Source of the DNA: Escherichia phage JN01
DNA length: 64,000 nucleotides
Direction: 5' to 3' (one strand)
Sequence record: MN882542
Shown here: positions 3,342-39,616 of the stretch, one piece after another
Layout of the letters: every line of letters starts with the position of its first letter
Position numbering within the stretch: position 1 is the stretch's first letter
Made by a program: the position numbers and the translations under genes
The notes under the pieces: model-generated
Seen by the model: the letters and a program-made list of their open reading frames with translations, nothing else
What the model was told of the DNA's origin: nothing
The model's database searches: none

Positions 3342-3857
3342 ATGTATCTGTCAAATCTGAAACGTTCTGCTGCAATGTCAGTTCTAAGACTCAGCTTCGA
3401 GGAACGTCAAGAGTTCATTGACTCCCACCAATACGACCCTTCTAACTCAAATCACATGATTCTCTGGAATCGTGATAGTACCCGTGAAAGAGCACTATTC
3501 CGATATTACCCACACTACACCATAGATAACCTGTATGAATGTTTTGTTGTGAAGAACACTATCACAGTGCTCAATAAACTTTGCAGATACACAGGTAATC
3601 AAGCATTCACATTAGGTCACCACAAACCTGTTACAAAAGGTGGTGAACATCACTGTGCAAACTGGTTTATCCAAACTAAACTTGATAACCAGAAGCAAGG
3701 AGATAGTCTTTTAAGCACCTCTAAGATGACCTATGAAGAGCAAGAGAAATATATCAAAAATAATATGCCAGATGTGCTTGACAACAACTATACAGATTTG
3801 GCAATATCTCTCCTGTTGAAGTTCGAGACAGTTTATAGGGCAACTTACAATGGCTAA
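3342..3857 (+). CDS. hypothetical protein, possible HNH-like nuclease
   Basis: 171 aa; segment GHHKPVTKGGEHHCANWFIQTKLDNQKQ loosely resembles an HNH core; RBS GGAG before ATG. Confidence 0.4.
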   Translation: MYLSNLKRSAAMSVLRLSFEERQEFIDSHQYDPSNSNHMILWNRDSTRERALFRYYPHYTIDNLYECFVVKNTITVLNKLCRYTGNQAFTLGHHKPVTKGGEHHCANWFIQTKLDNQKQGDSLLSTSKMTYEEQEKYIKNNMPDVLDNNYTDLAISLLLKFETVYRATYNG

Positions 3858-4137: not shown

Positions 4138-4593
4138 ATGATTTTTTGCAGCTTCCAAAAAAGAATTATTGAGATTCTATACAATAAGTTTGGGACAGAT
4201 AACACATTTGACTCAAATGAAGCTATTGAAGCTCTACAAGAAGGAAGTGATTACATCAAAAAACAGCCAATAGCAAACATCAGGTACTACTTGACTCAGA
4301 TGAGAAAGTGGGGTGTACTCATCGTGGTAGGACAGATTAAGCAACAAGGGAGGATGCTCATCAACCAATTAAATAGAGGTTTTATTGAGAAGCACATTCA
4401 GCTAGACTATTTACTTAAAGAGCCACGAAACCAACGTGAAGAGCAGCAAAAAGACTTAAGTGGTGGTGTAGATGTGTCTCCAGACATAAAATTCTTTATT
4501 GGTGAGTTGATGTTTGATACACTCCAAGATGCTGTTGAACACTGCAAAAAGTATATTATCAAAGTAAAACGTGCAAAAATTATTTGGGAGTAA
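4138..4593 (+). CDS. hypothetical protein, paralog family type A (copy 1)
   Basis: 151 aa; N-terminus MIFCSFQKRIIEILYNKFGTDNTFDSNEAIEAL and C-terminus AVEHCKKYIIKVKRAKIIWE shared with 5015..5479. Confidence 0.6.
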   Translation: MIFCSFQKRIIEILYNKFGTDNTFDSNEAIEALQEGSDYIKKQPIANIRYYLTQMRKWGVLIVVGQIKQQGRMLINQLNRGFIEKHIQLDYLLKEPRNQREEQQKDLSGGVDVSPDIKFFIGELMFDTLQDAVEHCKKYIIKVKRAKIIWE

Positions 4594-4597
4594 TAAC

Positions 4598-4993
4598 ATG
4601 TTTGAGCTTCTGAAGGTTCTGTATATAAATTTTGGCTATGATAAAACATTTTCTGGCTCACAACTAACTAAGGTTTTTAATAAATATCTACCACATGCTT
4701 CAATCAGGGATAAAGCTAATTGGTCTCACAGATTACGTAAAAGTGGGTATATTAGCGTTGTTGGAGCGACAGGCTTTAATAATGAGTATCTTATGAGAAT
4801 CAATGAAAGCAAAGCTAAAAATGTGCTTTTAAGTTGTAATGGCCATCAACAAAAGGATGAAGAGGTTAGTGTAGGTGAAGTAGGGTACTTCATAGGTGAC
4901 ATACACTTTACCAGTATGGAGGCAGCAGTTGAGCATTGTAAGAGAACGGTTATCCAAACAAAAAGAAAGCGTATTGTTTGGGAAGAAGTTTAA
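4598..4993 (+). CDS. hypothetical protein, paralog family type B (copy 1)
   Basis: ORF-track start 4571 is GTG; ATG at 4598 gives MFELLKVLYINFGYDKTF; C-terminus AVEHCKRTVIQTKRKRIVWE shares the family tail. Confidence 0.55.
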   Translation: MFELLKVLYINFGYDKTFSGSQLTKVFNKYLPHASIRDKANWSHRLRKSGYISVVGATGFNNEYLMRINESKAKNVLLSCNGHQQKDEEVSVGEVGYFIGDIHFTSMEAAVEHCKRTVIQTKRKRIVWEEV

Positions 4994-5014
4994 ACATTTG
5001 ATTAGGAATACACT

Positions 5015-5479
5015 ATGATTTTTTGCAATTTACAGAAGCACGTAATAGAGATTTTATACAAAACCTTCGGGACAGAAAACACTTTTGACTCTAACGAAGC
5101 AATTGACGCATTAAGAGAGAATAGCCTTTTTATACGAGGCCAGTCAATCAGTAATACCCGTGGGTATCTAACAATGTTAAGACAGTCTGGTGTACTGCTG
5201 ACTGTAGGGCAGGTAAAAAGCAAAGGTAGGCTAAGTATTAATCAATTAAATCGAGCCTTTATGGAGAAGCACATACAACTGTCAAGGATGCTAGATAATA
5301 CGCGTGAAGAGTTGGGGAGTTCACAAAAAGCAAGTTCATCTGATGTTAAAGATGTGGATGTACAACCTGACGTAAGATACTTTATTGCTGATGTTATGTT
5401 TAAAACACTCGATGAAGCTATTGAGCACTGCAAAAAGCATCTTATTAAAGTTAAACATGCAAAAGTTATTTGGGAGTGA
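5015..5479 (+). CDS. hypothetical protein, paralog family type A (copy 2)
   Basis: 154 aa; MIFCNLQKHVIEILYKTFGTENTFDSNEAIDAL ... AIEHCKKHLIKVKHAKVIWE. Confidence 0.6.
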   Translation: MIFCNLQKHVIEILYKTFGTENTFDSNEAIDALRENSLFIRGQSISNTRGYLTMLRQSGVLLTVGQVKSKGRLSINQLNRAFMEKHIQLSRMLDNTREELGSSQKASSSDVKDVDVQPDVRYFIADVMFKTLDEAIEHCKKHLIKVKHAKVIWE

Positions 5480-5483
5480 TGCT

Positions 5484-5864
5484 ATGATTGAACTGTTAAA
5501 AGTCCTGTATAATAAGTTTGGTTATGATAAAACTTTTACTTGTTCACAGATACGTAGTATCCATGACAAGGAATTTCCAAATGTATCCAAGACAAACAAG
5601 TCAACTCGGTTCAATCGTCTTCGCCAGAGGGGTTACATTAAAATAGTTGGATATAAGAATAACTCTTTCGAGTATGTAATGCAGATTAACAGAGAAGTAT
5701 CAAGTAAAATACTTGAAGAGCCAACAGCCGAAGAACAAAAGATACAAGATGGTGAAGTTCGCTTCTTTGTGGAGAAGGAAAGTTTTGGGTCAATAGATGA
5801 AGCTATCGAGTATTGTAAAAAGAACATTATCCAGATAAAGCGTAGAAAGGTTATTTGGGAATAA
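5484..5864 (+). CDS. hypothetical protein, paralog family type B (copy 2)
   Basis: ATG at 5484 gives MIELLKVLYNKFGYDKTF; C-terminus AIEYCKKNIIQIKRRKVIWE. Confidence 0.55.
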   Translation: MIELLKVLYNKFGYDKTFTCSQIRSIHDKEFPNVSKTNKSTRFNRLRQRGYIKIVGYKNNSFEYVMQINREVSSKILEEPTAEEQKIQDGEVRFFVEKESFGSIDEAIEYCKKNIIQIKRRKVIWE

Positions 5865-5883: not shown

Positions 5884-6765
5884 ATGAAAACATCTATCCG
5901 TGTTACAGTTCATTCACCAACTAAAGGGACTCATGAAGAAGAGTTTAACATCATCCAATTCCCTTCTGGTGAGATTGGTGGAAACTTTTCACCAGAGTTT
6001 GTTGATTTTACTGCTTATGCAGCATCATCTATCAACAATGTGATTATGATTGTAAAAGGTTATGATAAAGATACATTGTTTGCTGTGGCACTTGCTAAAG
6101 AGGCGGTGGACAACTTAGTACCTCATAAGTTTGCTATGAAGACCATTATCTTTTACTATTTGCCAAATGCACGTTATGACCGTCACATGTTTAAAGGTGA
6201 TGCAGCAGCTTTGAAAGTGTTTGCACAACAGGTTAATGCAATGGGTTTTGATGCAGTCTGTGCAGTTGACCCTCACAGCTATGTACCAGATAACCTGTTT
6301 AACTGCTTCCAGAGTATTCCTCAAAAGGAAATTGCAGTCCACTATGCAAATGACCCACTGGTTGATTACTTAGTAGCCCCAGATGCAGGTGCTTCTAAGA
6401 AGATTGCAGAGACTGCTAAAGAGGTGGATAAACCATACATCACAATGGCTAAGGTACGTGACCTTAAGACTGGTGAAATTACTGGTATGCGAATCCTTGA
6501 TGATGTTGATTTGACCGACAAAACTGTTATGATTCTCGACGATATCTGTGATGGTGGTCGAACCTTCATAGAAGCAGCTAAACATCTTCGTGAAGCAGGT
6601 GCAAAACGTGTGGAACTCTATGTAACACATGGTATCTTCTCTAAAGGCGTTGAAAACCTTCTTGACAATGGTATTGACCATATTTACACTACAAACTCTT
6701 TAGGGGAAGCTAAAGACCGTGGCTTAACACATTATGGTCAAGTTACTGTAGCAAACCTTGATTGA
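5884..6765 (+). CDS. prs: ribose-phosphate pyrophosphokinase (PRPP synthetase)-like protein; possibly ADP-ribose pyrophosphokinase of a NAD reconstitution pair
   Basis: PRTase-type motifs VAPDAGA and ILDDICDGGRTF, 293 aa; RBS GAGAGAGA before ATG. Confidence 0.75.
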   Translation: MKTSIRVTVHSPTKGTHEEEFNIIQFPSGEIGGNFSPEFVDFTAYAASSINNVIMIVKGYDKDTLFAVALAKEAVDNLVPHKFAMKTIIFYYLPNARYDRHMFKGDAAALKVFAQQVNAMGFDAVCAVDPHSYVPDNLFNCFQSIPQKEIAVHYANDPLVDYLVAPDAGASKKIAETAKEVDKPYITMAKVRDLKTGEITGMRILDDVDLTDKTVMILDDICDGGRTFIEAAKHLREAGAKRVELYVTHGIFSKGVENLLDNGIDHIYTTNSLGEAKDRGLTHYGQVTVANLD

Positions 6766-6769
6766 AACT

Positions 6770-6796
6770 TTATAGGGGCTTCAAAGCCCCATTTTG
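6770..6796 (+). terminator. hairpin with weak T-tract between prs-like and NAMPT-like genes
   Basis: GGGGCTT-caa-AGCCCC followed by ATTTTG; may act as attenuator. Confidence 0.35.
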
Positions 6797-6811
6797 AGAG
6801 AGATTAAAAAG

Positions 6812-8593
6812 ATGACTAAATCACTTTATGCAGTACCAGCAGGTTTAAACGCAGATGCTTACAAATCTGGTCATGTTTACCAGTACCCTAGTGCAACAGA
6901 GTACTTGATGTTTAACCTGACACCACGTAGCAATAAATGGTTTAACAGCCCTTTAGCAATTGACGGTGTAGTGGCTTTTGGTATTCAACGTTTTGTTAAA
7001 GATTACTTGATAGACCACTGGAATGCCACCTTCTTTGAACGTGACAAAAAAGAAGCAATTGATGAAATCTTAGAAGTCATGAACGGTGTTCTGGGTAAAG
7101 ATGCTATTGGTCGAGAGCATTGGGAAGCACTTCATGACTTGGGTTATCTACCAGTTGAAGTATACGCTGTAGAAGAAGGCACAGTTGTCCCTATGCGTGT
7201 CCCAATGATTGTCTTCCAGAACACTATTTCAGGTTTCCATTGGGTAGCTGGGTATCTGGAAGATGCTTTCTCTGCTGAGATTTGGAAGGCTTGTACCATT
7301 GCAACTATTGCATTGCACTACAAACGTATCTGTAAGAAGTGGGCTGACCTTACTTGTGACAACGACTTGCATTTACCTTACCAGTGCCATGACTTTGCTA
7401 TGCGTGGTATGTCCGGCTTCACTGATGACGCATTTAATGCTGTAGGACACTTAACCAGCTTCAAAGGAACTGATAGCTTCCCTGCTGTATATACAGCTAA
7501 ACGCATCTATGGACAGTCCTACCCAATCTCTGATATTGGTAGCTCTGTACCAGCCACTGAACACTCTGTAATGTGTGCAAACATTGCTTGGGAAGGTGGT
7601 AATGAGTTGATTGAAGAAGAAAGACGCTTTAAAGGTGAGTTACAAACCTTCCGTCGTTTCTTAACAGAAACTTATCCAACTGGTATTGCAAGTGTTGTTT
7701 CAGACACTTATAATTTCTGGAGAACTGTATCAGAAATCTTACCAGCACTTCGTAAAGAGATTATGGAACGTGATGGCAAACTGGTAATTCGTCCTGACTC
7801 TGGCGACCCTGTACATATTGTCACAGGTTATAAAGCAATCCACTTAGAGTGTGCTAAAAAGGCTTATTACGAACACCTAAGCAAGCTGGAAGCCAGTGAC
7901 ACAATGTTGAATGCTGTTCTGAACATGAAGCTTGAAAACATCAACTATGGTATTGCTGGATGGCTACTGTCAGAAGGCTACGAAATGGTTGTTGACAGAG
8001 AAGACTTTGAAGTTGCTGATACAGTGCTGTTGAAAAATGCTTATATGGTTGGTTCTGCAAACGTTGTAACGCGTCCTGTAGCAGAGATTGATGGGGCCAT
8101 TAAGACACTGTATAACATCTTCGGAGGAACTATCAACTCTAAAGGCTTCAAGGTACTGGATGAGCACATCGGCCTTATCTATGGTGACTCTATCACGTTG
8201 GAACGTGCAAACGAAATCCTGAAGCGTTTGTATGAAATGGGTTTTGCAAGCTCTAACGTAGTGTTTGGTGTAGGTTCTTACACTTACCAGTACATTACTC
8301 GTGACACCTTTGCATTTGCTGTCAAAGCAACTCTTGCAAGCATTGGTGGTAAAGAGATTATGCTTGCAAAAGACCCTAAAACAGATAGTGGTGTTAAGAA
8401 GTCTGCTTTTGGTGGTGTAGCACCCATGTGGGATGGTGAGAATCTGAAAGCTGTAGATGGCTATGGGTTCCAGAGCTTTGCAGATGCACTTGAACATCCA
8501 GCTTGTGCTTTACGTTTAGTCTTTAGCGACTCTGAGCAGTTCGGCTACACAACTCTTGGCGATATTCGAAATAATATTGACAAGCAGCTTTAA
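6812..8593 (+). CDS. nadV: nicotinamide phosphoribosyltransferase (NAMPT/NadV) family protein
   Basis: N-terminal NADAYKSGHVYQYP resembles the NAMPT substrate motif (DSYKVTHYKQYP); about 593 aa; ORF-track start 6794 is TTG, ATG at 6812. Confidence 0.75.
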   Translation: MTKSLYAVPAGLNADAYKSGHVYQYPSATEYLMFNLTPRSNKWFNSPLAIDGVVAFGIQRFVKDYLIDHWNATFFERDKKEAIDEILEVMNGVLGKDAIGREHWEALHDLGYLPVEVYAVEEGTVVPMRVPMIVFQNTISGFHWVAGYLEDAFSAEIWKACTIATIALHYKRICKKWADLTCDNDLHLPYQCHDFAMRGMSGFTDDAFNAVGHLTSFKGTDSFPAVYTAKRIYGQSYPISDIGSSVPATEHSVMCANIAWEGGNELIEEERRFKGELQTFRRFLTETYPTGIASVVSDTYNFWRTVSEILPALRKEIMERDGKLVIRPDSGDPVHIVTGYKAIHLECAKKAYYEHLSKLEASDTMLNAVLNMKLENINYGIAGWLLSEGYEMVVDREDFEVADTVLLKNAYMVGSANVVTRPVAEIDGAIKTLYNIFGGTINSKGFKVLDEHIGLIYGDSITLERANEILKRLYEMGFASSNVVFGVGSYTYQYITRDTFAFAVKATLASIGGKEIMLAKDPKTDSGVKKSAFGGVAPMWDGENLKAVDGYGFQSFADALEHPACALRLVFSDSEQFGYTTLGDIRNNIDKQL

Positions 8594-8607
8594 AAGTATA
8601 TGATAAG

Positions 8608-8632
8608 AGGCTCCTACGGGAGCCTTTTTAAT
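8608..8632 (+). terminator. intrinsic terminator
   Basis: GGCTCC-tacg-GGAGCC hairpin followed by TTTTTAATTT. Confidence 0.65.
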
Positions 8633-8646
8633 TTCTGGAGAAGATT

Positions 8647-9168: not shown

Positions 9169-11535
9169 ATGCGCATGGTAAACGACCACGCAGAAGTGAT
9201 TAAGAGTTCAACTTCTTTAGAGACATCTCAAGCACAGATTACAATGACACCTGAAATGTTCAGCCTTCTGAGTTCTGGTGTATATACCTTTAAAGAGCGA
9301 GCAGTAATTCGTGAACTGTCATGTAACGCAGTAGATGCTCAGAAAGAAGCTGGAAAAGAGAACATCCCGTTCCATGTGCATTTACCTACTCGTTTTGAGC
9401 CTTACTTTGAAGTTCGTGATTTTGGAACTGGATTGACTCATGATAAAGTTATGAGTTTGTATCTAAATTACGGGGCTTCTACGAAGAATGACTCTAATGA
9501 CTACATTGGTGCAATGGGTATCGGCTCAAAATCTCCATTTGCAATCGCTCAGTCATTCACAGTATCTAGCTATGTTGACGGTGTTGTTAATAAGTACTCT
9601 GTTTATCTTGAGAATGGTATCCCTCAAGTAACTAAACTTACCACTAACCCAACAAAAGAACCTAATGGATTAGCTGTACGTGTAGCAGTTGCTGACCATC
9701 GTATTTCAAAGTTCTTTGAAGAGGCTGGTAATGTATACTCATACTTTGCTGTAAAACCAGAAAGTAATATCGAGTATGACGATGTGTTAGCAGATATGAA
9801 TGTTATTGCCCGTGAAGAAGGTGTTTATGATGCCATGATTCATAAGCAAAGCTGGCGTTCTAGTGGTAATAGGACAGAATTTAATGTGGTGATGGGTAAT
9901 ATTGCCTATCCAGTGAATATGGAAGCATTACTTGGTGATGATTTCTTCAAAGTATTGCCAGAATTTTTCCGTAGGAGCGTAGACCTTGTAAACATCTACA
10001 TGCCTATTGGTTCAGTTGCTATTGCAGCTTCTCGTGAAGCATTGCAGATGAATGACACGACAAAAAATGTTATCATCGAGGCTACTAAAAAGATAACTGA
10101 AGCAATTACAAAGGATGTTATCAAGAAAGTTAATAGCCAACCTACACTCATGGATGCTGCACAGGCTTATGCTGAGTTACGCTTGAACTCACGAGAGATG
10201 TTTAATGCTGTGTGTCCAAAGCTAGAGTGGGGTGGTGTTAAGCTTGATTCTCTGGAAGAAGAATTACTAAACATTCGTCGTGGAATTATCTACGCAGAAG
10301 ACGGCTCAGTCATTTATGAACGTGACGGTAAAGGTAATATTAAGGTTGATAGGAACGGAAACAACATCCCTAAAGTAGATTATCTTTATAATCCAGTTGC
10401 TTATGTCAAGTTCAACTCTTTAGAGAGTAAGATTCGTGCAACATCGCTTTCCTACACTCAAGAGGCAAGTATGTTCAATATCTTTGGCGCAATGCGTAAA
10501 AGCCAAATTGAACAGTTTTTGTTTGTTATCAATGACCGTCGCAATAAAAACGGTACTGAGAAAACTGTAGGACGCAACCAGATTCTGCGTGGTGCATGTC
10601 GAGACTATGCCAGCGAGTCAAGTCTGTTTCACAGATACAATGGCATTGTCTTTGTATTCTCTACTGAGAAAGAGCTAGATGATTTAATCAATCTGCACAA
10701 ACTTGATAAAAGCTTGTTAAAGATTGTGAAGATGTCTGATAAGGAACACCATTATCAGCGTAAAGAAGCTGTAAGAGGTGTTGTAAAACTCTGGAAAGCT
10801 GTTCCAGCAGAAGGTGTAGCTTCATACAAAGAGGTGTCAGAAGACTTAGATACGATTGAAGAGCCTCAGCTTTATATTAAGGCAGTAGGTGACACAGTTG
10901 ATGGCGAATGTTTTTGCTCATCTCCAGAAGATGTAGCTAAGTCAGTTGCCAATGTCATTGAAAAGACAGTCTATGTTTTCCGAAAAGCAAATTGGAAAAA
11001 GATACCAGAAGACTGGATTGAAGTAGATGAGAAGCTCTTGAACGACAGCTTAACTGATGTTCACTGGATTAATCATAACAGGTATATGACACGTATCTAT
11101 ATGAATGGTGTCCTTGACCTTACAAGCAGTTGGATTATTGCCAGAAACTTTACGTTCAATAACAGGAAGATTTCTCGTGGTTATTGCTATTCACGAGACA
11201 CAAACAAAACTATCTTCTTAGAAGGTAATGAAGATGCTGTTGAGGCAATGTTTGGCAAAATCCAATACGTTGCTGCACCGTTTGCATACACTTATACTGT
11301 TAGTCGGTTGCAAACTTTGAAAGAGTGCCTTGACAACGATACAAAGCTGTACAAGAAAATTAAGAAAGCTGGTGACCGTATGGTCATTAAGGTGACAAAC
11401 TACCTTTCAAAAAGAAAACAAGAAAACTTCTTGCTTTCTCATTTAGATTGGAATAAAGTGTCACCCATAGAAGTGAGTAAGTTCTTAGGTTTTGATGTGA
11501 AGTGTGTTCCAGAAGGAACTACAATTTACGATTAA
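9169..11535 (+). CDS. rIIA: rIIA-like protein with GHKL/HATPase-type N-terminal domain
   Basis: 788 aa; Bergerat-fold motifs ELSCNAVDA, RDFGTGL, GIGSKSPF near N-terminus; size and fold as in T4 rIIA; followed by an rIIB-sized gene. Confidence 0.55.
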   Translation: MRMVNDHAEVIKSSTSLETSQAQITMTPEMFSLLSSGVYTFKERAVIRELSCNAVDAQKEAGKENIPFHVHLPTRFEPYFEVRDFGTGLTHDKVMSLYLNYGASTKNDSNDYIGAMGIGSKSPFAIAQSFTVSSYVDGVVNKYSVYLENGIPQVTKLTTNPTKEPNGLAVRVAVADHRISKFFEEAGNVYSYFAVKPESNIEYDDVLADMNVIAREEGVYDAMIHKQSWRSSGNRTEFNVVMGNIAYPVNMEALLGDDFFKVLPEFFRRSVDLVNIYMPIGSVAIAASREALQMNDTTKNVIIEATKKITEAITKDVIKKVNSQPTLMDAAQAYAELRLNSREMFNAVCPKLEWGGVKLDSLEEELLNIRRGIIYAEDGSVIYERDGKGNIKVDRNGNNIPKVDYLYNPVAYVKFNSLESKIRATSLSYTQEASMFNIFGAMRKSQIEQFLFVINDRRNKNGTEKTVGRNQILRGACRDYASESSLFHRYNGIVFVFSTEKELDDLINLHKLDKSLLKIVKMSDKEHHYQRKEAVRGVVKLWKAVPAEGVASYKEVSEDLDTIEEPQLYIKAVGDTVDGECFCSSPEDVAKSVANVIEKTVYVFRKANWKKIPEDWIEVDEKLLNDSLTDVHWINHNRYMTRIYMNGVLDLTSSWIIARNFTFNNRKISRGYCYSRDTNKTIFLEGNEDAVEAMFGKIQYVAAPFAYTYTVSRLQTLKECLDNDTKLYKKIKKAGDRMVIKVTNYLSKRKQENFLLSHLDWNKVSPIEVSKFLGFDVKCVPEGTTIYD

Positions 11536-11616
11536 AGTGTTTGACAAGGGGCTTCAAAGCCCCTTAGAATAACCTCACAAAATGATTTATTAACTAACAA
11601 GAGAGAGAGTAATAAG

Positions 11617-12726
11617 ATGACTACTAAAACTAAAGCACAGATTGACGCAGAAATCTACAAACTGGTTAAAGAAGGTAAGCTGACTAAAACAGCTATTGCA
11701 CAGAAGTTCAATACCTCAACCCGTTCAGTTGGTCGTGCTGTAGAGCGTCATGAAGCAACTTTAAAAGGTAAGAAAAAGGTAGCTTCGACACCAGCTAAGA
11801 AGACTTTGAAGCAAGTTGCTAAGTCAGTTAAAAAGAAAGCTGGAAAACCAGTTGAAAAGGTTGTTAAAGACACTGTACAGAAAGTTCCAGTAAATAAACT
11901 GCACGAAGCTATGCAGAAAGATGACAAGATTGAGTACATGATTACTGGCGACTCTGTAATTATGACTTACGGTTCAGAATCTGAAATTGTTGAGTCTACT
12001 CATCCGAACTATCAAGAGATTGTAGTTCACGTTGTGAAAGGTGAGTTCAAGAAAGCATTTGAACTGATGAACATTCGTAAGTCTATCGAAAACTTCACTC
12101 AGGGTGCTATCACAATCAAAGGTGACAAGTTATTCTACGGTGCTGTTGAGATGCGTTCTACTCTGGTTGACCGTATTCTTCACATGATGAAGACTGGTGA
12201 TAAAGGTTTTGAACGACTTGTAATGTTCTTCGAAAAACTGATGGAAAACCCATCTAAAGACTCCGTAGAACAGCTTTGGGGATTTGTATCTCACCTTGAT
12301 GTTGAAATTGATGAAGAAGGCTACATCATTGGTTGGAAGAAAGTTTCTACTCGTGAAGGCAAGCTGGTTGACTCCCACACCTACAAAGTGCCTAATGATT
12401 TGGGTAACATTGTAGAAATGCCACGTTGGATGGTTGATAACAACCGTAACGTAACTTGCTCTCAGGGTCTTCATGTTGGTGCTTGGGATTATGTTCGTTA
12501 CTTCTCAGGTGATACAATCCTGAAGGTTCGTGTCCATCCACGAGATGTTGTATCTGTTCCGACTGATTACAACGATATGAAGATGCGTTCATCCCGTTAT
12601 GAAGTTGCAGCAATCGTTGATAATCAACGTAAAGTTCTGAAAGCATGGGATGGTAAGACTGAAGCTTTGCATGTCATCGTTGGTACTGCTGGGGAACTCA
12701 TCTCTCAACGCAAACGTGAAATCTAA
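11617..12726 (+). CDS. rIIB-like protein (by position and size), Lys-rich N-terminal region
   Basis: 369 aa ORF immediately downstream of rIIA-like gene; no independent motif. Confidence 0.4.
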   Translation: MTTKTKAQIDAEIYKLVKEGKLTKTAIAQKFNTSTRSVGRAVERHEATLKGKKKVASTPAKKTLKQVAKSVKKKAGKPVEKVVKDTVQKVPVNKLHEAMQKDDKIEYMITGDSVIMTYGSESEIVESTHPNYQEIVVHVVKGEFKKAFELMNIRKSIENFTQGAITIKGDKLFYGAVEMRSTLVDRILHMMKTGDKGFERLVMFFEKLMENPSKDSVEQLWGFVSHLDVEIDEEGYIIGWKKVSTREGKLVDSHTYKVPNDLGNIVEMPRWMVDNNRNVTCSQGLHVGAWDYVRYFSGDTILKVRVHPRDVVSVPTDYNDMKMRSSRYEVAAIVDNQRKVLKAWDGKTEALHVIVGTAGELISQRKREI

Positions 12727-16380: not shown

Positions 16381-17166
16381 ATGGGTATTGTAAAAATCAT
16401 CAATGGGGACATCTTCTCCGCATTTGATAAAGGTAAGTTTGATATCATTGGTCACGGTTGCAACTGTATGAATTTAATGGGTGCAGGTATCGCTGACAAG
16501 GTTTCTAAACTTTACCCAAAAGCATATGAGACCGATACAGAAGTTTATCTGTATGCAGGTGGTATAGGCCACAAACCCTGTGAAAATTTACTAGGCAATT
16601 TCTCTGTAGCACGTTTAGAACAAGGCCGTATAGCTAACCTTTACACTCAGCTTAAGACTGGTAACGATGCCCGATACAGTGCTTTAGAATCATCTTTGAA
16701 ACAACTTAACAGATACTGTGAAGTTAATCAGTTGAAGAAAGTTGGGTTACCTATGATTGGTGCAGGTATCGGTGGACTAGACCCTCAAGCCGTCACAGTT
16801 ATCATTAATCAGGTGATGAAGAGTGTAGATGTGTATCTGTATGTCTACGAAGGAGAGATGTACCACAAGTTACGCTCAGGTTGGAAGAACTACTGTGAAC
16901 CAGAATACTTTGCAGGTGTAGTAGTGTTCACTGATGATGCAGTTACCCTCTTCAGACGAAGAAAAGGTAAGATACATCAAAGTAACCCTCCGGTTGAAAA
17001 GATGTCTCTAAGTAACGCTCTAGTTACCCACCTGTCGAAGAGCAATCACAGAATTGCAGTAACATTTGGCAGTGATGCAGATACATATATCTATGCAAGA
17101 ACTGATGAGGATGTTGAGGAAATTTTCTCTTCACCGGAAGTTACCTTCTTAGACGCAAAAAACTAA
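16381..17166 (+). CDS. macro-domain-like protein (ADP-ribose binding/processing), tentative
   Basis: N-terminal INGDIFSAF...DIIGHGCNCMNLMGAGIA resembles macro-domain GDIT...D-IVNAAN...GGGV-AI pattern; 261 aa. Confidence 0.45.
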   Translation: MGIVKIINGDIFSAFDKGKFDIIGHGCNCMNLMGAGIADKVSKLYPKAYETDTEVYLYAGGIGHKPCENLLGNFSVARLEQGRIANLYTQLKTGNDARYSALESSLKQLNRYCEVNQLKKVGLPMIGAGIGGLDPQAVTVIINQVMKSVDVYLYVYEGEMYHKLRSGWKNYCEPEYFAGVVVFTDDAVTLFRRRKGKIHQSNPPVEKMSLSNALVTHLSKSNHRIAVTFGSDADTYIYARTDEDVEEIFSSPEVTFLDAKN

Positions 17167-35234: not shown

Positions 35235-35308
35235 CTCTGTTTAGCTCAGCTTGGTAGAGCGTTCCGTTTGGGGCGGTAAGGCCGGAGGTTCAAGTCCTCC
35301 AACAGAGA
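35235..35308 (+). tRNA. tRNA-Pro(TGG)
   Basis: Hand-folded cloverleaf, anticodon loop TTTGGGG, T-arm GGAGGTTCAAGTCCTCC, CCA encoded. Confidence 0.7.
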
Positions 35309-35318
35309 CCAAATTAAT

Positions 35319-35392
35319 GTTCCAGTAGACAAAATGGTAAAGTCACCACTCTTTCAAAGTGGATATTTGAGGGTTCAAATCCCTTCTGGAAT
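35319..35392 (+). tRNA. tRNA-Glu(TTC)
   Basis: Acceptor GTTCCAG/CTGGAAT, anticodon stem-loop CCACT-CTTTCAA-AGTGG, T-loop TTCAAAT, CCA encoded. Confidence 0.7.
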
Positions 35393-35403
35393 GCCAGTTT
35401 TGA

Positions 35404-35476
35404 CAGAAGACCAATTACAGCAAGTTTAATCTTATTCATCTGACACGAAATCGGACAAAGAAGAGATTTGGTCTGG
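35404..35476 (+). ncRNA. stem-closed structured element A (Y-RNA-like candidate)
   Basis: 5' arm CAGAAGACCAA pairs with 3' arm TTGGTCTGG; conserved ACAGCAA box after 5' arm. Confidence 0.35.
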
Positions 35477-35487
35477 TCATTAAGAAT

Positions 35488-35561
35488 TGCGGGTATAGAG
35501 AAAGGGCGTCTCACATGTCTCATTAGCATGGTATCGGCAGGTTCGACTCCTGCACCCGCCT
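35488..35561 (+). tRNA. tRNA-Met or Ile2 (CAT), slightly atypical acceptor/D junction
   Basis: Anticodon stem-loop CATGT-CTCATTA-GCATG, T-arm GCAGGTTCGACTCCTGC, CCA encoded; 1-72 pair mismatched. Confidence 0.55.
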
Positions 35562-35570
35562 CCAATTTTG

Positions 35571-35630
35571 CAGAAGACCGTATTCAGCAACAAACTACTT
35601 TTTGCGGATAAAAGAAAAAACACGGTCTGG
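35571..35630 (+). ncRNA. stem-closed structured element B (Y-RNA-like candidate)
   Basis: 5' arm CAGAAGACCGT pairs with 3' arm ACGGTCTGG; the two bases beside GACC covary relative to element A (AA/TT vs GT/AC). Confidence 0.35.
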
Positions 35631-35641
35631 CAATGTATTAA

Positions 35642-35715
35642 GGTTAGGAAGCACATAAGGTATGTGCGGTCGCCTGTTAAGCGAATGGCACAGGGTTCGA
35701 ATCCCTGACTAACCG
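35642..35715 (+). tRNA. tRNA-Asn(GTT)
   Basis: Acceptor GGTTAGG/ACTAACC, anticodon loop CTGTTAA, T-arm CAGGGTTCGAATCCCTG, CCA encoded. Confidence 0.65.
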
Positions 35716-35727
35716 CCAAATTTAAAT

Positions 35728-35812
35728 GTGTCGTTATCCCGTAGATGGTAGCGGTGGGGACTGTAAATCCCTTGTCATTGAGACTCGGTAGGTTCGACTC
35801 CTACACGGCACA
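35728..35812 (+). tRNA. tRNA-Tyr(GTA), class II
   Basis: Anticodon stem-loop GGGGA-CTGTAAA-TCCCT, long variable arm, T-arm GTAGGTTCGACTCCTAC, CCA encoded. Confidence 0.7.
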
Positions 35813-35821
35813 CCAAATAAA

Positions 35822-35895
35822 GGTTATGTAGTTTAACTGGTTAAAATACTCCCCTGTCACGGGAGATGATGAGGGTTCAAATCCCTTCGTAACCG
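35822..35895 (+). tRNA. tRNA-Asp(GTC)
   Basis: Acceptor GGTTATG/CGTAACC, anticodon stem-loop CTCCC-CTGTCAC-GGGAG, T-loop TTCAAAT, CCA encoded. Confidence 0.7.
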
Positions 35896-35984
35896 CCAAA
35901 TTATAATAAGTATTTCAAAATGCTGTTTGAGAGGGCTATTTAGCCTCTCCCTTAAAGAGTTCTTACGAGTATTCTTTAAAGGAG

Positions 35985-36061
35985 CAGAAGACCAAATTCA
36001 GCAAGTACGTATGATATTTTCAAGCCAATTTAATTTTGAAAAAATTTAAAACTTGGTCTGG
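35985..36061 (+). ncRNA. stem-closed structured element C (Y-RNA-like candidate)
   Basis: 5' arm CAGAAGACCAA, ATTCAGCAA box, 3' arm TTGGTCTGG. Confidence 0.35.
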
Positions 36062-36074
36062 CTCAACAAATTTA

Positions 36075-36206
36075 CAGAAGACCGTTTACAGCAAAACTTA
36101 AACAATCTATTTCTCCGGTAAAGAAAAGGCGAAGGTTCGATTCCTTCACTCGGCAGGTGTCGAGTTGGTGTAATGGTAGCACTTAAGATGATAAACAACG
36201 GTCTGG
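36075..36206 (+). ncRNA. stem-closed element D with embedded tRNA-like module (YrlA-like Y RNA candidate)
   Basis: Arms CAGAAGACCGTT / AACGGTCTGG enclose hairpin TTTCT-CCGGTAA-AGAAA, T-arm GAAGGTTCGATTCCTTC, capped helix ACTCGGC-AGGT-GTCGAGT and D-arm GTGTAATGGTAGCAC. Confidence 0.45.
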
Positions 36207-36216
36207 TAATTATCTT

Positions 36217-36354
36217 TGTAGATAAGTTATTAAGCTTACCTGTGAGTATGCGACCACAAAGGGTGAAAGGGTAAATTCTAGATTTAAACCCAACAATGCA
36301 CATCGCTACAGACCTTAAGCAAGTCTGGGTAGCTTATCTACAAAGATAATTTAA
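36217..36354 (+). ncRNA. structured element E: 21 bp inverted repeat pair around a CAGACC...GGTCTG hairpin
   Basis: TTATCTTTGTAGATAA at 36221 and its reverse complement TTATCTACAAAGATAA at 36335; inner hairpin CAGACCTTAAGCAAGTCTGG. Confidence 0.3.
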
Positions 36355-36355
36355 T

Positions 36356-36428
36356 GGAAGTGTAGCAGAATGGTGATGCGGCAGACTTTTAATCTGACAG
36401 GCGATGGGTTCGAATCCCTCCACTTCTA
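36356..36428 (+). tRNA. tRNA-Lys(TTT)
   Basis: Acceptor GGAAGTG/CACTTCT, anticodon stem-loop CAGA-CTTTTAA-TCTG, T-loop TTCGAAT, CCA encoded; paralog of 38064..38135 with compensatory stem changes. Confidence 0.6.
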
Positions 36429-36435
36429 CCAATAT

Positions 36436-36509
36436 GGTTCAGTCGCAGATAAGGTAATGCAGGGGTTTCATAAGCCCTATGAATGTGGGTTCGATTCCCA
36501 TCTGAACCT
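36436..36509 (+). tRNA. tRNA-Met(CAT)
   Basis: Acceptor GGTTCAG/CTGAACC, anticodon stem-loop GGGGT-TTCATAA-GCCCT with three G-C pairs, T-arm GTGGGTTCGATTCCCAT, CCA encoded. Confidence 0.65.
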
Positions 36510-36513
36510 CCAA

Positions 36514-36586
36514 GCTGGTATAGTTAAGAAGGTTATAACACTCCCCTGATAAGGGAATATCGGTGGTTCGATTCCACCTACCAGTA
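36514..36586 (+). tRNA. tRNA-Ile(GAT)
   Basis: Acceptor GCTGGTA/TACCAGT, anticodon loop CTGATAA, T-arm GGTGGTTCGATTCCACC, CCA encoded. Confidence 0.7.
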
Positions 36587-36604
36587 CCAATTTCAATAAA
36601 GTTG

Positions 36605-36633
36605 TTGACATTGAGATGTGACTACTTTATAGT
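36605..36633 (+). promoter_or_regulatory. candidate sigma70-type promoter inside tRNA cluster
   Basis: TTGACA, 17 bp spacer, TATAGT. Confidence 0.5.
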
Positions 36634-36956
36634 AACTGAAAATAATTCAGCATATGTATAATTCAAACACCAATACATGAGCGTTAGACGTAACACAATG
36701 TGGGGAAATTTGTTGTACATATTCTGAATAGTTTTCGTTGCGTAGCGTCTATTTTGCAAATTTAAAATAAATGCAAACGACAATGTTTTTCTGGCAGTAG
36801 CTTGATAGGCTAAACACCAGTGAGGTCTTCCAATCCCTCATCAAAGAATTTGGCGTACTCGCCCACGGTATGATTAATAAGGTGGGCAACATTCTAAAGG
36901 GTATCCCTTATGGGGCTTGGCTTAAATGCAATGAGTACCCTTTAAAATGTTAATTA

Positions 36957-37035
36957 CGGGGCGTATCTCAGCGGTCTTCTAAACCGCCGTTAACCGAGTA
37001 AGTGGAGTATGCGGGTTCGAGTCCTGCCGCCTCGA
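36957..37035 (+). tRNA. atypical tRNA-like gene, Arg(TCT)-type anticodon loop, no recognisable D-arm
   Basis: Acceptor CGGGGCG/CGCCTCG, anticodon stem-loop GCGGT-CTTCTAA-ACCGC, T-arm GCGGGTTCGAGTCCTGC, CCA encoded; only 7 nt between acceptor and anticodon stem, 23 nt variable region. Confidence 0.4.
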
Positions 37036-37053
37036 CCAATTTTGGATGAAATC

Positions 37054-37401
37054 ATGAAAACTTGTATTAGGTGCAAACTTAGCAAGGATGAAAGTGATTT
37101 CTACATGAAAGATGGTAGGAGAACTCATTCATACTGTAAAAAGTGTGTTAATGAGCAAACCATAGAAAGACAAAGAGCACTTAAACTTTCAGCTATTGAG
37201 TACAAAGGTGGAGTTTGTCATGATTGTGGTAAAAGGTATCATCCAGCAGTGTATGACTTCCATCATTTGAATCCTTCAGAGAAAGATTTTAACATTGGTC
37301 ATAGAAAAAGTCTTAAGTTCTCTCAGGAGCTAAAGGACGAACTTGACAAATGTGTTTTGCTATGTTCAAATTGCCATAGGGTAAGACATGCAAAGTATTA
37401 G
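37054..37401 (+). CDS. HNH endonuclease (homing-endonuclease-like) inside the tRNA cluster
   Basis: CxxC...CxxC zinc pairs with HNH core DFHHLNPSEKDFNIGH...CSNCHRVRH; ORF-track start 37009 falls in the tRNA-like T-arm, ATG at 37054 preferred. Confidence 0.75.
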   Translation: MKTCIRCKLSKDESDFYMKDGRRTHSYCKKCVNEQTIERQRALKLSAIEYKGGVCHDCGKRYHPAVYDFHHLNPSEKDFNIGHRKSLKFSQELKDELDKCVLLCSNCHRVRHAKY

Positions 37402-37538
37402 TTAGCAGATTGCTTAGACGACCTTATCGGGTCTCCGTGTAAGGAGGTGGTCTGTATCTCATGTTTTCCAGAACATGTAAATAATCTGAGAAGGGGCTTT
37501 ACAGTGTTGTGAGAATACGGTAAGCTTCGAATTATAGT

Positions 37539-37618
37539 GTGGGACGATGTTAAGACTCTAAGGCATGAGCAACGGCCTCCAAAACCGTTTCAAAGTGGTT
37601 CAACTCCTCCGTCCCATG
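37539..37618 (+). tRNA. atypical tRNA-like gene, Trp(CCA)-type anticodon loop, oversized D region and weak T-stem
   Basis: Acceptor GTGGGAC/GTCCCAT, anticodon loop CTCCAAA in stem ACGG/CCGT, T-loop TTCAACT, CCA encoded; may be degenerate. Confidence 0.35.
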
Positions 37619-37633
37619 CCAAAGTCTTATTAG

Positions 37634-37721
37634 GGGTAGGTAGCGGCTAATGGTAGCCAAACTGTCTTGAAAACAGTTGCCACTGTAGAGATACGGTGAG
37701 GGTTCGACTCCTTTACTTACC
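37634..37721 (+). tRNA. tRNA-Ser(TGA), class II
   Basis: Anticodon stem-loop ACTGT-CTTGAAA-ACAGT, long variable arm, T-arm GAGGGTTCGACTCCTTT. Confidence 0.7.
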
Positions 37722-37879
37722 GCCTAATAAGATTTAAAGCCAAGCTTCATTCGGATGTTGCTTTGGTATCCCTCGTGTATTGTCGTACACACTGATAAAG
37801 CACCTAGTAGGTGTCACGGAGAAGAGATAATATCAAGCTCTCCAAAGGTTCTAGTCACCGGATTAAACAAGACTATGCA

Positions 37880-37908
37880 AAGACCTATTTAGGTCTTTTT
37901 AGAGGGCT
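37880..37908 (+). terminator. hairpin with T-tract inside tRNA cluster
   Basis: AAGACCTA-ttt-AGGTCTT followed by TTTAGAG; repeats the AGACC/GGTCT arm motif. Confidence 0.4.
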
Positions 37909-37979
37909 TCTAAGGTTATTACAGCTTGTTGTGGAACCTTGTTGCTTAGGTTCTTAGAAGTTCTCTAAAAAGATTTAAT

Positions 37980-38053
37980 GCACCTATAGCCCAACTGGTA
38001 GAGGCAGCAGACTTAGAATCTGCTCAGTGTGAGTTCGAATCTCTCTAGGTGTA
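37980..38053 (+). tRNA. tRNA with anticodon TAG (Leu by anticodon), short variable arm
   Basis: Anticodon stem-loop GCAGA-CTTAGAA-TCTGC, 3 bp D-stem, 5 nt variable loop, discriminator A, CCA encoded. Confidence 0.5.
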
Positions 38054-38063
38054 CCAAATTAAT

Positions 38064-38135
38064 GCAGGTGTAGCAAAATGGTTATGCGGCTGACTCTTAA
38101 TCAGTAAGACGATGGGTTCAATTCCCTCCACCTGT
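38064..38135 (+). tRNA. tRNA-Lys(CTT)
   Basis: Anticodon stem-loop CTGA-CTCTTAA-TCAG, T-loop TTCAATT, CCA encoded. Confidence 0.6.
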
Positions 38136-38144
38136 ACCAAACAT

Positions 38145-38218
38145 TGGGGATGTAGTTTACATGGTTAAAACATAAGTTTTGCAAACTTAAGTACAGGGTT
38201 CAATTCCCTGCTTCTCCA
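38145..38218 (+). tRNA. tRNA-Ala(TGC)
   Basis: D-arm GTTT...AAAC, anticodon stem-loop TAAGT-TTTGCAA-ACTTA, T-arm CAGGGTTCAATTCCCTG, CCA encoded. Confidence 0.7.
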
Positions 38219-38226
38219 CCAATTAG

Positions 38227-38298
38227 TGCATCCATAGTTTAAACGGGAAAATTACAGTCTTCCAAACTGAGGTTGAGGGTTCGATTCCCTCTGGATGC
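38227..38298 (+). tRNA. tRNA-Gly(TCC)
   Basis: Acceptor GCATCCA/TGGATGC, anticodon loop CTTCCAA, T-arm GAGGGTTCGATTCCCTC, CCA encoded. Confidence 0.7.
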
Positions 38299-38308
38299 TC
38301 CAAATTAA

Positions 38309-38382
38309 TGCTCCTATCGTATAATTGGCTATTACGGTTGCCTTGTAAGCAACTTATCAGGGTTCGAATCCTTGTGGGAGCA
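38309..38382 (+). tRNA. tRNA-Thr(TGT)
   Basis: Anticodon stem-loop GTTGC-CTTGTAA-GCAAC, T-arm CAGGGTTCGAATCCTTG, CCA encoded. Confidence 0.7.
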
Positions 38383-38388
38383 CCAATT

Positions 38389-38476
38389 CAGAGGTCAAGT
38401 GAAAGACCGCTGGTGTCAACTGAAGACCGTAACAAATTCCACGGAGTTGAGTTAGCGGCACAACTTCAGACCTCTT
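38389..38476 (+). ncRNA. structured element F (multi-stem, GAAGACCGT motif)
   Basis: Outer stem CAGAGGTC/GACCTCT; nested pairs CCGCT/AGCGG, CAACT/AGTTG, CCGT/ACGG; contains CTGAAGACCGTAAC related to elements A-D. Confidence 0.35.
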
Positions 38477-38480
38477 TCAT

Positions 38481-38552
38481 ACTCGCTTAGTTTATATGGT
38501 AAAACATCACCCTTACAAGATGGAGAAAAAGGTTCAAGTCCTTTAGTGAGTA
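38481..38552 (+). tRNA. tRNA-Val(TAC)
   Basis: Acceptor ACTCGCT/AGTGAGT, D-arm GTTT...AAAC, anticodon loop CTTACAA (one stem mismatch), T-arm AAAGGTTCAAGTCCTTT, CCA encoded. Confidence 0.55.
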
Positions 38553-38556
38553 CCAT

Positions 38557-38631
38557 GTTCCAGTATCCCAATTGGCAGAGGATGCAAGCTCAAACCTTGT
38601 ACTAGTGACGGTTCGAATCCGTCTTGGAACA
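38557..38631 (+). tRNA. tRNA with anticodon CAA (Leu by anticodon), short variable arm
   Basis: Anticodon stem-loop GCAAG-CTCAAAC-CTTGT, T-arm GACGGTTCGAATCCGTC, discriminator A, CCA encoded. Confidence 0.5.
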
Positions 38632-38639
38632 CCAATTTT

Positions 38640-38712
38640 GCAGGATTAGTTCAAATGGATAGAGCAACAGTCTACGAAGCTGTTAATAGGGGTTCGAATC
38701 CCTTATCCTGCG
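38640..38712 (+). tRNA. tRNA-Arg(ACG)
   Basis: Acceptor GCAGGAT/ATCCTGC, anticodon stem-loop ACAGT-CTACGAA-GCTGT, T-loop TTCGAAT, CCA encoded. Confidence 0.7.
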
Positions 38713-38733
38713 CCAGATAAGTAAGAGTGATTT

Positions 38734-38976
38734 ATGCAAACATTAATCGTCGTTGAACATGAAAATTCCAATAGCATTGAGTTTGTAAGGGTTCCCACTA
38801 TAGATACCCACATTTTCTTGAAAGTAGGCTGGGAATGTGACCCAATAAGAGTAGAAAAATTTATTGGTCATTACTTTGGTGGAAGACAACTTAAAAGTGT
38901 TAATTTTGAGACAATGTTACCAGAAAACTCAGAAACAAATAATAATGTTTACCTCCTTACAAGGATTAGACAATGA
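38734..38976 (+). CDS. hypothetical protein
   Basis: 80 aa ORF within tRNA cluster, weak RBS. Confidence 0.35.
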   Translation: MQTLIVVEHENSNSIEFVRVPTIDTHIFLKVGWECDPIRVEKFIGHYFGGRQLKSVNFETMLPENSETNNNVYLLTRIRQ

Positions 38977-39530
38977 GATATTTGAAGTATGTTTCATGGA
39001 TTTTCTTAGCTTTGCTAGAGCCATTTGCAGCAATCTTAGCAGTCATCTTAGCACCTTTTGTAGTTCTATTCTACAGTGAGAAGAGAGGACACTTACCTTT
39101 CGGCTTCAGATGGATGGAAACATATGACAACCCAATTGATGGTGATAAAGGTCATGTCGAACGATGGGCTAAGATTAGAAAGATTGGTAAGCTTGGTATC
39201 TATATGCAGAGAGTTGGTTGGCTCTGGAGAAACAAAGCTTATAACTTCTCTTACCATGTGTTAGGAAGAGATGTAAAAGATGTTACTAAGTGGAAAGGTA
39301 ATATCAATGTAAGTTCTAACCCTGAAGATAATCAGACAGGTTATCTCCTAATGTGGAACAGTAATGCTTGGGGATTATTCGCTTTTATCCCATCAATTAA
39401 ACTCTTTGGTAAGCAATTCTACTGGAGAATTTATGTTGGATGGAAACTTAAAAGTGTTGTTCCAAAAGAAAGAGCATTCTCAAGGGAAAGAGTTATGTTG
39501 GCATTCTTTATTCATCCACTGAGAAAGTAA
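38973..39530 (+). CDS. hypothetical membrane protein
   Basis: 185 aa; hydrophobic N-terminus (WIFLALLEPFAAILAVILAPFVVLF), Trp-rich. Confidence 0.45.
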   Translation: MRYLKYVSWIFLALLEPFAAILAVILAPFVVLFYSEKRGHLPFGFRWMETYDNPIDGDKGHVERWAKIRKIGKLGIYMQRVGWLWRNKAYNFSYHVLGRDVKDVTKWKGNINVSSNPEDNQTGYLLMWNSNAWGLFAFIPSIKLFGKQFYWRIYVGWKLKSVVPKERAFSRERVMLAFFIHPLRK

Positions 39531-39538
39531 AGATTTAA

Positions 39539-39611: not shown

Positions 39612-39616
39612 CCAAT

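Follow-up and report, generated by a model that had tools for sequence, protein, structure and literature searches.

Do adjacent phage genes for a PRPP-synthetase-like (Prs-like) and a NAMPT-like protein serve ordinary NAD+ salvage, or do they rebuild NAD+ that host defense systems have broken down? We addressed this question in Escherichia phage JN01 (sequence record MN882542), of which a stretch of 64,000 nucleotides, hereafter the window, was analysed. An initial annotation had proposed that two genes of the window are a NARP1-like (NAD+ reconstitution pathway 1) pair, encoding an ADP-ribose pyrophosphokinase (Adps) and a nicotinamide ADP-ribose transferase (Namat). Both open reading frames were present on the plus strand, at 5884..6765 (293 aa) and 6794/6812..8593, and the motifs quoted for them (VAPDAGA, ILDDICDGGRTF and NADAYKSGHVYQYP) were all found in the translations. 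Profile searches against the Prs and NAMPT families upheld the family assignments of both.

The window genome is that of a Felixounavirus and is collinear with genes 76-95 of Escherichia phage JohannRWettstein (Bas63; accession MZ501086, taken from the PhageMaP preprint). The pair occupies the same slot as in Bas63, between the orthologue of gene 0078 and rIIA, with the same gene order, strand and protein lengths (293 and 593 aa). The second length depends on the start of namat: the ATG at 6812 gives 593 aa, agrees with the Bas63 annotation and is the likely start, and the ORF as delimited mechanically begins at the in-frame upstream TTG of position 6794 (599 aa). From the ATG, 46 nt separate the two genes. 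Adps was 80% identical to Bas63_0079 across 293/293 aa and Namat 98% identical to Bas63_0080 across 593/593 aa, both with zero gaps. These identities, the synteny and the conservation of the published residues mapped below bear out the NARP1 proposal. The pair matches Bas63 Adps and Namat, and therefore the call appears correct and the system is one already known. We conclude that the pair is very probably the NARP1 operon of a Felixounavirus, and this operon is orthologous to the founding Bas63 operon.

NARP1 was discovered and genetically validated in the Bas63 operon, whose deletion made the phage sensitive to SIR2-HerA; ADPR-pyrophosphate (ADPR-PP) was seen only when both the operon and a defense system were present (Osterman et al. 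2024, 10.1101/2024.02.11.579819). In an independent study, single deletion of g79 or g80 cut plating on Sir2-HerA cells 1e4-1e6-fold, and the defect was rescued by complementation (10.1101/2024.10.10.617714). Activity of the pathway has been shown in vivo for Bas63 and in vitro for the SPbetaL1, ICP1, Gary and DyoEdafos homologues. From the Bas63 orthologues and the SPbetaL1, ICP1 and Gary homologues, we infer the same chemistry and anti-defense phenotype here. A host defense NADase of the SIR2, TIR or SEFIR type would split NAD+ into ADP-ribose and nicotinamide. Adps would then move the beta-gamma pyrophosphate of ATP to the 1'' position of ADP-ribose, yielding ADPR-PP, and Namat would swap the pyrophosphate for nicotinamide, regenerating NAD+ directly, with neither NMN as an intermediate nor any need for salvage enzymes of the host. 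Such rebuilding would permit phage replication in cells that carry NAD-depleting abortive-infection systems.

Adps (5884..6765, plus strand) matched Pfam Pribosyltran/Pribosyl_synth and phrog_619 (3e-99), and it was 40% identical to the Gary and ICP1 Adps. It passed the broad subfamily model TIGR01251 (122 bits, where 113 are needed) but scored below every NCBIfam Prs equivalog cutoff, with 45-104 bits against cutoffs of 296-536; the best of these scores, 104 bits, faced a cutoff of 296. On the basis of identity, phrog_619 and the failed equivalog cutoffs, we placed it with the phage Adps clade and not with cellular Prs. The PDB search for Adps structures returned cellular Prs enzymes only. 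To map functional residues, we aligned the ICP1 sequence from GenBank and used the residue list of PMC13586617. All eight of the ICP1 residues F18, R87, H121, D161, K185, D212, D213 and D216 were kept, as F26, R97, H131, D167, K190, D219, D220 and D223, and the position of ICP1 F92 is Met in both the window Adps and Bas63. K190 also aligned with K192 of Gary Adps, whose mutation to alanine inactivates the pathway (Osterman et al. 2026 preprint).

The two Felixounavirus operons differ at the start of adps. Its 5' ~500 nt form a divergent, mosaic allele with 58-75% nucleotide identity to Bas63. The divergent region encodes the N-terminal ~170 residues, in which the mapped residues F26, R97, H131 and D167 were all kept. 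In that domain, the validated Adps and the window Adps are therefore less than near-identical. All functional residues that were examined are nonetheless shared by the two operons.

Namat (6812..8593, plus strand) matched Pfam NAPRTase (7.5e-35) and NAMPT_N, phrog_448 (5e-202) and NF006629 (469 bits). Its best PDB sequence matches were the SPbetaL1 Namat structures 9W5W/9W5X (E ~1e-128), compared with 1e-41 to 1e-52 for true NAMPTs, and its AF2 model (pLDDT 93.5) gave 9W5X/9W5W as the top Foldseek matches, with a TM of 0.95. The catalytic core was kept: H251 is the catalytic histidine, and F195, R198, D221, R327 and D329 correspond to SPbetaL1 F189, R192, D215, R306 and D308. H251 aligned with Gary H243, for which H243A is an inactivating mutation (Osterman et al. 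2026 preprint). The selectivity-clamp helix motif GSX-phi-X-phi-X-phi-TRD was present as GSYTYQYITRD, from G488 to D498, in which positions 3 and 7 are aromatic. The selectivity-clamp loop (SCL) of Namat supplies an adenine-stacking residue, which is either an Arg in position 3 or a stacking residue that comes after Lys/Tyr (PMC12774641); the window protein has RSNK42-W43, the K-W arrangement described for Bas63 Namat.

Between the invariant G339 and G428, the window Namat carries 88 aa, against 12-20 aa in short forms. This insertion subdomain (residues ~340-427; 7829..8092, plus strand) appeared as a HMMER alignment gap against 9W5W and in the MAFFT alignment, and it was predicted to be a compact alpha/beta unit (pLDDT 92-96). 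Other lineages have unrelated modules of 33-94 aa at the equivalent place, and the crystallised SPbetaL1 Namat has no such insertion. As a lesser possibility, the insertion may add a regulatory or partner-binding function.

Among the more distant systems, the NARP1 of SPbetaL1 and ICP1 runs on the same logic of two enzymes. Its NAM/NMN/AMP-contact residues and SCH motif are conserved in the window pair, as are the catalytic Lys and the Asp-rich acceptor loop, DDICD. SPbetaL1 NARP1 has been biochemically characterised, including the Namat structures 9W5W/9W5X, and structures of ICP1 Adps are described in PMC13586617. Identity to these proteins is, however, only ~38-40%. The window Namat also has a 19-aa insertion that SPbetaL1 Namat does not share, in addition to the 88-aa folded one; its SCL has K-W in place of a stacking Arg, and the PP-loop residues are GGRTF versus GAASF.

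We then weighed whether the pair could instead encode a true PRPP synthetase, making PRPP from ribose-5-phosphate, and a true NAMPT/NadV, making NMN from nicotinamide and PRPP, with host NadR/PncC finishing NAD+ and a general nucleotide/NAD boost as the outcome. The current labels favor this: in most related phage records listed, GenBank names the pair 'ribose-phosphate pyrophosphokinase' and 'nicotinamide phosphoribosyltransferase', and Pfam and NCBIfam place the proteins in the Prs and NAMPT superfamilies. The two kinds of enzyme share their folds, pyrophosphoryl transfer from ATP and the displacement of pyrophosphate by nicotinamide at ribose C1. Their substrates would differ, being ADPR and ADPR-PP here and ribose-5-phosphate and PRPP in the cellular enzymes. 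ADPR is the substrate of SPbetaL1 Adps, and Namat has a preference for ADPR-PP (10.1101/2024.02.11.579819, PMC12774641), and ADPR-PP and PRPP-independent NAD+ synthesis have already been shown for orthologues. The sequences of the window proteins agree with this, as Adps falls short of the Prs equivalog thresholds (45-104 versus 296-536 bits) and Namat has the adenine-binding clamp motif, which is absent from NAMPTs (PMC12774641). Namat enzymes do retain PRPP-to-NMN activity in vitro, at about half the NMN-forming level of human NAMPT (PMC12774641), and some NMN synthesis by the window Namat is thus possible. Taken as the function of the pair, conventional salvage is very improbable.

NARP2, in which NadV and Nmnat work from PRPP, and NARP3, in which PnuC and NadR work from nicotinamide riboside, were rejected, and we give them a close to negligible probability. 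The second ORF has the NAMPT-family fold, but the Nampts of NARP2 fall into a clade of their own, found in phages with Nmnat and no Adps (10.1101/2024.02.11.579819). The window gene adjoins Adps and is 98% identical to a member of the Namat clade. NARP3 is made of unrelated proteins, and neither Nmnat, the NARP2 partner that we looked for, nor NadR or PnuC was among the annotations of the collinear Bas63 genome. The NARP1 assignment rests on orthology, synteny and conservation of the mapped published functional residues.

The surroundings of the operon differ from those of Bas63 on both sides. Four extra tandem ORFs lie directly 5' of adps, and bas63_0081 is missing 3' of the pair. The four ORFs form a tandem array of paralogues of one family, phrog_29478, of unassigned function. 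They are absent from Bas63, and they were rejected as extra NARP1 components. Some NARP1 operons contain RyDEP, a RyR-domain cADPR glycosidase; none was found among the immediate neighbours, which gave only PHROGs of unknown function and zero Pfam matches.

The initial annotation had also noted a hairpin between the genes. It is present at 6775..6790 (plus strand), with a 6-bp stem and a UCAA loop (GGGGCU-UCAA-AGCCCC, then AUUUUG), and Bas63 has the same hairpin apart from one loop substitution. Its predicted fold has a dG of -12.6 kcal/mol and is statistically modest (z = -1.76), and the consensus terminator scan did not call it. Given the 6-bp stem, the 4-U tail, this z value and the absence of a scan call, we set aside the idea of a terminator or regulatory RNA. 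Lying between adps and namat, the hairpin is at most a minor feature, which may attenuate weakly or affect RNA stability. An intrinsic-terminator-like hairpin with a 10-bp stem, 5 GC pairs and a T-run lies at the operon end (8605..8628, plus strand).

A macro-domain-like protein at 16381..17166 (plus strand) had been suggested as a functional relative of the pair. The ORF is real: it matched Pfam PF01661 (1.2e-6), and its AF2 fold (pLDDT 89.6) matched Macro proteins. It encodes 261 aa, is 97% identical to bas63_0095 ('putative phosphatase'), and is the only Macro ORF found. It lies outside the core operon, 7.8 kb and 13 genes downstream. Gary Adpp is the validated ADPR-1''-phosphate phosphatase of NARP1-AP and is killed by H24A (Osterman et al. 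2026 preprint). The Gary operon (Adps-Adpp-Namat) resembles the window in its Adps (40% identity) and Namat (37% identity), and the window genome likewise has a Macro protein of phrog_335 (1e-112), the PHROG of Gary Adpp, with the catalytic His. The Gary phosphatase has 158 aa and is encoded between adps and namat, whereas the window protein is more distant in position, longer, only 27% identical (E 4e-13), and equipped with an extra beta-rich C-terminal domain. The suggested functional relation is reasonable, and we regard the protein as a candidate, still unproven, for an Adpp-like ADPR-1''-phosphate phosphatase unlinked to the operon.

If so, the Macro protein would turn ADPR-1''-phosphate, produced by aRES/RES NAD+ phosphorylases, into ADPR that feeds Adps and Namat, and the phage would overcome aRES. 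Besides the common phrog_335, the protein shares 27-30% identity with two Adpps linked to NARP1, that of Gary and the JG004 NARP1-linked Macro (30%, E 2e-21). Its H25 aligned with Adpp H24 and was invariant in 31 homologues, and Foldseek matched it to Poa1p (6LFQ), the yeast ADPR-1''-P phosphatase, with an rmsd of 2.5 A. At identities of at least 60%, about 243 Felixounavirus-like records matched the Macro protein and about 252 matched Adps; from these similar numbers, most such records probably carry both. Both queries also had matches in Erwinia phage vEam_PM_21, 12 kb apart, and in Pseudomonas phage Kremar, 3 kb apart.

Several observations point the other way. The gene lies beyond the two genes on either side of the operon within which NARP1-AP is assigned, the published NARP1-AP table is without any Escherichia or Salmonella phage, and Adpp is without the extra C-terminal domain. 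About 2,800 phage records have the Macro family, versus about 1,400 for Adps. It is spread over many lineages, including the T-even phages, in which it bears the name Tk.4. To our knowledge, these T-even phages are without NARP1, which suggests another primary role for the family. TARG1, DarG and Poa1p were about equally good structural matches, TARG1/DarG-type de-ADP-ribosylation being as well represented as the phosphatase; the fold therefore cannot separate the two activities, and we dropped the assignment of activity by fold alone. PhageMaP did not report Bas63 gene 95 as counter-defense, although aRES may have been outside its panel. We consider this dispersed arrangement of NARP1-AP tentative and rather unlikely.

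The finding is a re-identification of a published counter-defense system in the genus of its discovery. Its main practical value lies in the labels, as most related GenBank records listed still misleadingly name the pair Prs and NAMPT. If the dispersed NARP1-AP is true, Felixounaviruses would resist aRES even though operon searches class them as plain NARP1. If the Macro protein acts as Adpp, searches by operon proximity would undercount the NARP1 phages able to beat RES-type NAD+ phosphorylases, and its presence would help to predict the host range of therapeutic Felixounavirus phages on aRES strains.

The two consecutive plus-strand genes at 5884..8593 were described in the initial annotation as a Prs-like and NAMPT-like pair separated by a hairpin. 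Both ORFs and all of the quoted motifs were present in the window translations, and profile searches bore out the family call. ORF1 (adps, 5884..6765, 293 aa) matched Pfam Pribosyltran/Pribosyl_synth and phrog_619 'ribose-phosphate pyrophosphokinase' (3e-99). It exceeded the cutoff of the broad model TIGR01251 (122 bits vs 113) and fell far under all Prs equivalog thresholds. ORF2 (namat) matched NAPRTase/NAMPT_N and phrog_448 (5e-202); it spans 6794..8593 from a TTG codon (599 aa) or begins at the ATG at 6812 (593 aa), the counterpart of the annotated start in Bas63 (Escherichia phage JohannRWettstein, MZ501086). The hairpin, a 6-bp GC-rich stem followed by AUUUUG, was found at 6775..6790 within the 46-nt spacer. 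It is kept in the closest characterised relative and is thermodynamically unremarkable (z = -1.76). A stronger, terminator-like hairpin lies 3' of ORF2 (8605..8628).

The window is collinear with genes 76-95 of Bas63, a Felixounavirus. In gap-free comparisons, the window Adps was 80% identical to Bas63_0079 (235/293) and Namat was 98% identical to Bas63_0080 (580/593). The residues listed in the structural study of ICP1 Adps (F18, R87, H121, D161, K185, D212, D213, and D216; PMC13586617) are all kept in the window Adps, as F26, R97, H131, D167, K190, D219, D220, and D223, and all eight are the same in Bas63. The Namat crystal paper (PMC12774641; PDB 9W5W/9W5X) describes two elements, a conserved core like that of NAMPT and a 'selectivity clamp' for adenine; the clamp pairs a variable loop with the helix motif GSX-phi-X-phi-X-phi-TRD. 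In the window Namat, the clamp helix reads GSYTYQYITRD (residues 488-498), and the loop carries K42-W43, the configuration described for Bas63. The alignment also placed D15, Y17, F195, R198, D221, A248, H251, R327, D329, and G458-D459-S460 in this protein. Two pathway-inactivating mutations of Vibrio phage Gary, K192A in Adps and H243A in Namat, fall at K190 and H251 of the window proteins. In sequence searches, Namat matched the Namat crystals at ~1e-128 and true NAMPTs at 1e-41 to 1e-52. Its AF2 model (pLDDT 93.5) superposed best on 9W5X/9W5W (TM 0.95), with HdNadV and mammalian NAMPT behind. The identity to Bas63_0079/0080 and the conserved clamp and Adps residues support the earlier NARP1-like reading, and the pair is very probably NARP1.

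NARP1 was discovered as Bas63 genes 79-80. Bas63 without the operon is sensitive to SIR2-HerA, NAD+ restoration by the operon persists without host PncC/NadR, and ADPR-pyrophosphate (ADPR-PP) appears only when the operon and the defence system are present together. The SPbetaL1 homologues convert ADP-ribose (ADPR) and ATP to ADPR-PP, and ADPR-PP and nicotinamide to NAD+ (10.1101/2024.02.11.579819). In an independent knockout screen, single deletion of g79 or g80 cut plating 1e4-1e6-fold on Sir2-HerA cells, and the two genes are also active against retron Ec86 and hhe (10.1101/2024.10.10.617714). A GenBank-style reading of the pair as Prs and NAMPT, making PRPP and NMN, could draw on the finding that some PRPP-dependent NMN synthesis by Namat remains in vitro (PMC12774641), but it conflicts with the genetic and metabolomic data on Bas63 and with the clamp seen in the window Namat. 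NARP2 requires Nmnat and a distinct Nampt clade (10.1101/2024.02.11.579819), and the annotation of the collinear Bas63 genome lists no Nmnat. NARP3 consists of PnuC and NadR. Since these alternatives are contradicted or unmatched, the pair was filed as NARP1 with high confidence.

A search with the 2.7-kb operon segment hit 255 phage records. Almost all of them are FelixO1-like myoviruses of Escherichia, Salmonella, Shigella, and Citrobacter, and Salmonella phage SP3_SHan-2021 was the top hit (97.7%). GU169904.1, MG065664.1, and MG065691-like records also carry this Felixounavirus operon (91-93% nt identity). Their labels include 'Staphylococcus phage SA1' and 'Campylobacter phage A132', and these two are probably contaminated or mislabelled entries. 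The window also contains a plus-strand cluster of 25 tRNAs (35235..40890) corresponding to the Bas63 tRNA block; such clusters are typical of Felixounaviruses.

Over its 5' ~500 nt (5884..6400), adps is a divergent allele that shares 58-75% of its nucleotides with Bas63, against 90-97% across the remainder of the operon. By identity, Felixounavirus Adps proteins fall into two sets, one at >=93% and one at about 77-80%. The 5' divergence and this grouping suggest a recombination mosaic within the Adps N-terminal domain. The divergent end adjoins a variable upstream region, where four tandem paralogous ORFs (A-B-A-B; 151, ~131, 154, and ~135 aa; phrog_29478, no Pfam match) occupy 4138..5864. This array is an insertion that separates adps from the bas63_0078 orthologue; it is missing from Bas63 and is covered in only ~10/258 related records. 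Downstream, bas63_0081 (114 aa; L003 6009..6353) has no counterpart in 8594..8646, and other relatives carry an HNH homing endonuclease or a membrane protein around the operon. From these comparisons, both flanks are indel hot-spots. Window 3342..3857 and 9169..12726 hold orthologues of Bas63 g77 and rIIA/rIIB (g84/g85), which PhageMaP reported as counter-defence genes against retron Ec67 and QatABCD, respectively (10.1101/2024.10.10.617714). Therefore, the NARP1 operon is located in an anti-defence-rich early region.

Between the invariant G339 and G428, Namat has an 88-aa insertion (7829..8092, residues ~340-427), predicted to be a compact, well-folded alpha/beta subdomain (pLDDT 92-96). This site is hypervariable among Namat homologues: short Namats have 12-20 aa there, and other phage lineages carry unrelated modules of 33-94 aa. 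A second insertion of 19 aa lies at residues ~257-275. The word 'insertion' is absent from the Namat structure paper (PMC12774641). Chromosomal Namat-like proteins of 495-496 aa (P0099-P0151) were seen in Klebsiella, Cronobacter, Phytobacter, Citrobacter, and Erwinia, on contigs reaching 6 Mb, with 40-48% identity mostly over roughly half the query. They are consistent with the bacterial NARP1 homologues reported earlier (PMC12774641).

The initial annotation had also pointed to a Macro-domain-like protein at 16381..17166 (261 aa), and the domain was recovered (Pfam Macro, 1.2e-6); bas63_0095 'putative phosphatase' is 97% identical. The RES-type defence aRES converts NAD+ to ADPR-1''-phosphate, which NARP1 cannot use, and ~15% of NARP1 operons include Adpp, a Macro phosphatase resembling Poa1p, which regenerates ADPR ('NARP1-AP'); that survey covered Macro genes <=2 genes from the operon only (10.64898/2026.01.28.702374). 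An Adpp-like role of the window protein, functionally linked to NARP1, is a tentative candidate. It shares one PHROG (phrog_335) with the validated Gary Adpp (27% identity, E 4e-13), resembles the NARP1-linked Macro protein of JG004 (30%, E 2e-21), and has H25, the equivalent of Adpp H24, invariant in 31 homologues; the modelled macro domain superposes on Poa1p at 2.5 A. However, TARG1 and DarG match the model as well as Poa1p does, and the ORF lies 13 genes downstream of the operon. The published NARP1-AP table contains no Escherichia or Salmonella phage (10.64898/2026.01.28.702374). The protein also has an extra beta-rich C-terminal domain (residues ~170-261), confidently predicted and without a PDB match among the listed hits; the best-matching targets are only ~140-170 residues long, and none covers it. 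Gary Adpp (158 aa) lacks this domain, which homologues of ~250 aa retain at identities as low as ~33%. Furthermore, the Macro family occurs in ~2,800 phage records vs ~1,400 for Adps, including T-even phages, which are not known to carry NARP1 and in which the gene bears the annotation Tk.4. Weighing these points, we consider the link plausible but less likely than not.

NARP1 is already known, and the window pair sits at the locus and in the genus where it was discovered; therefore, its presence here is ordinary, and the only mildly novel lead is that the unlinked Macro protein may act as an Adpp.
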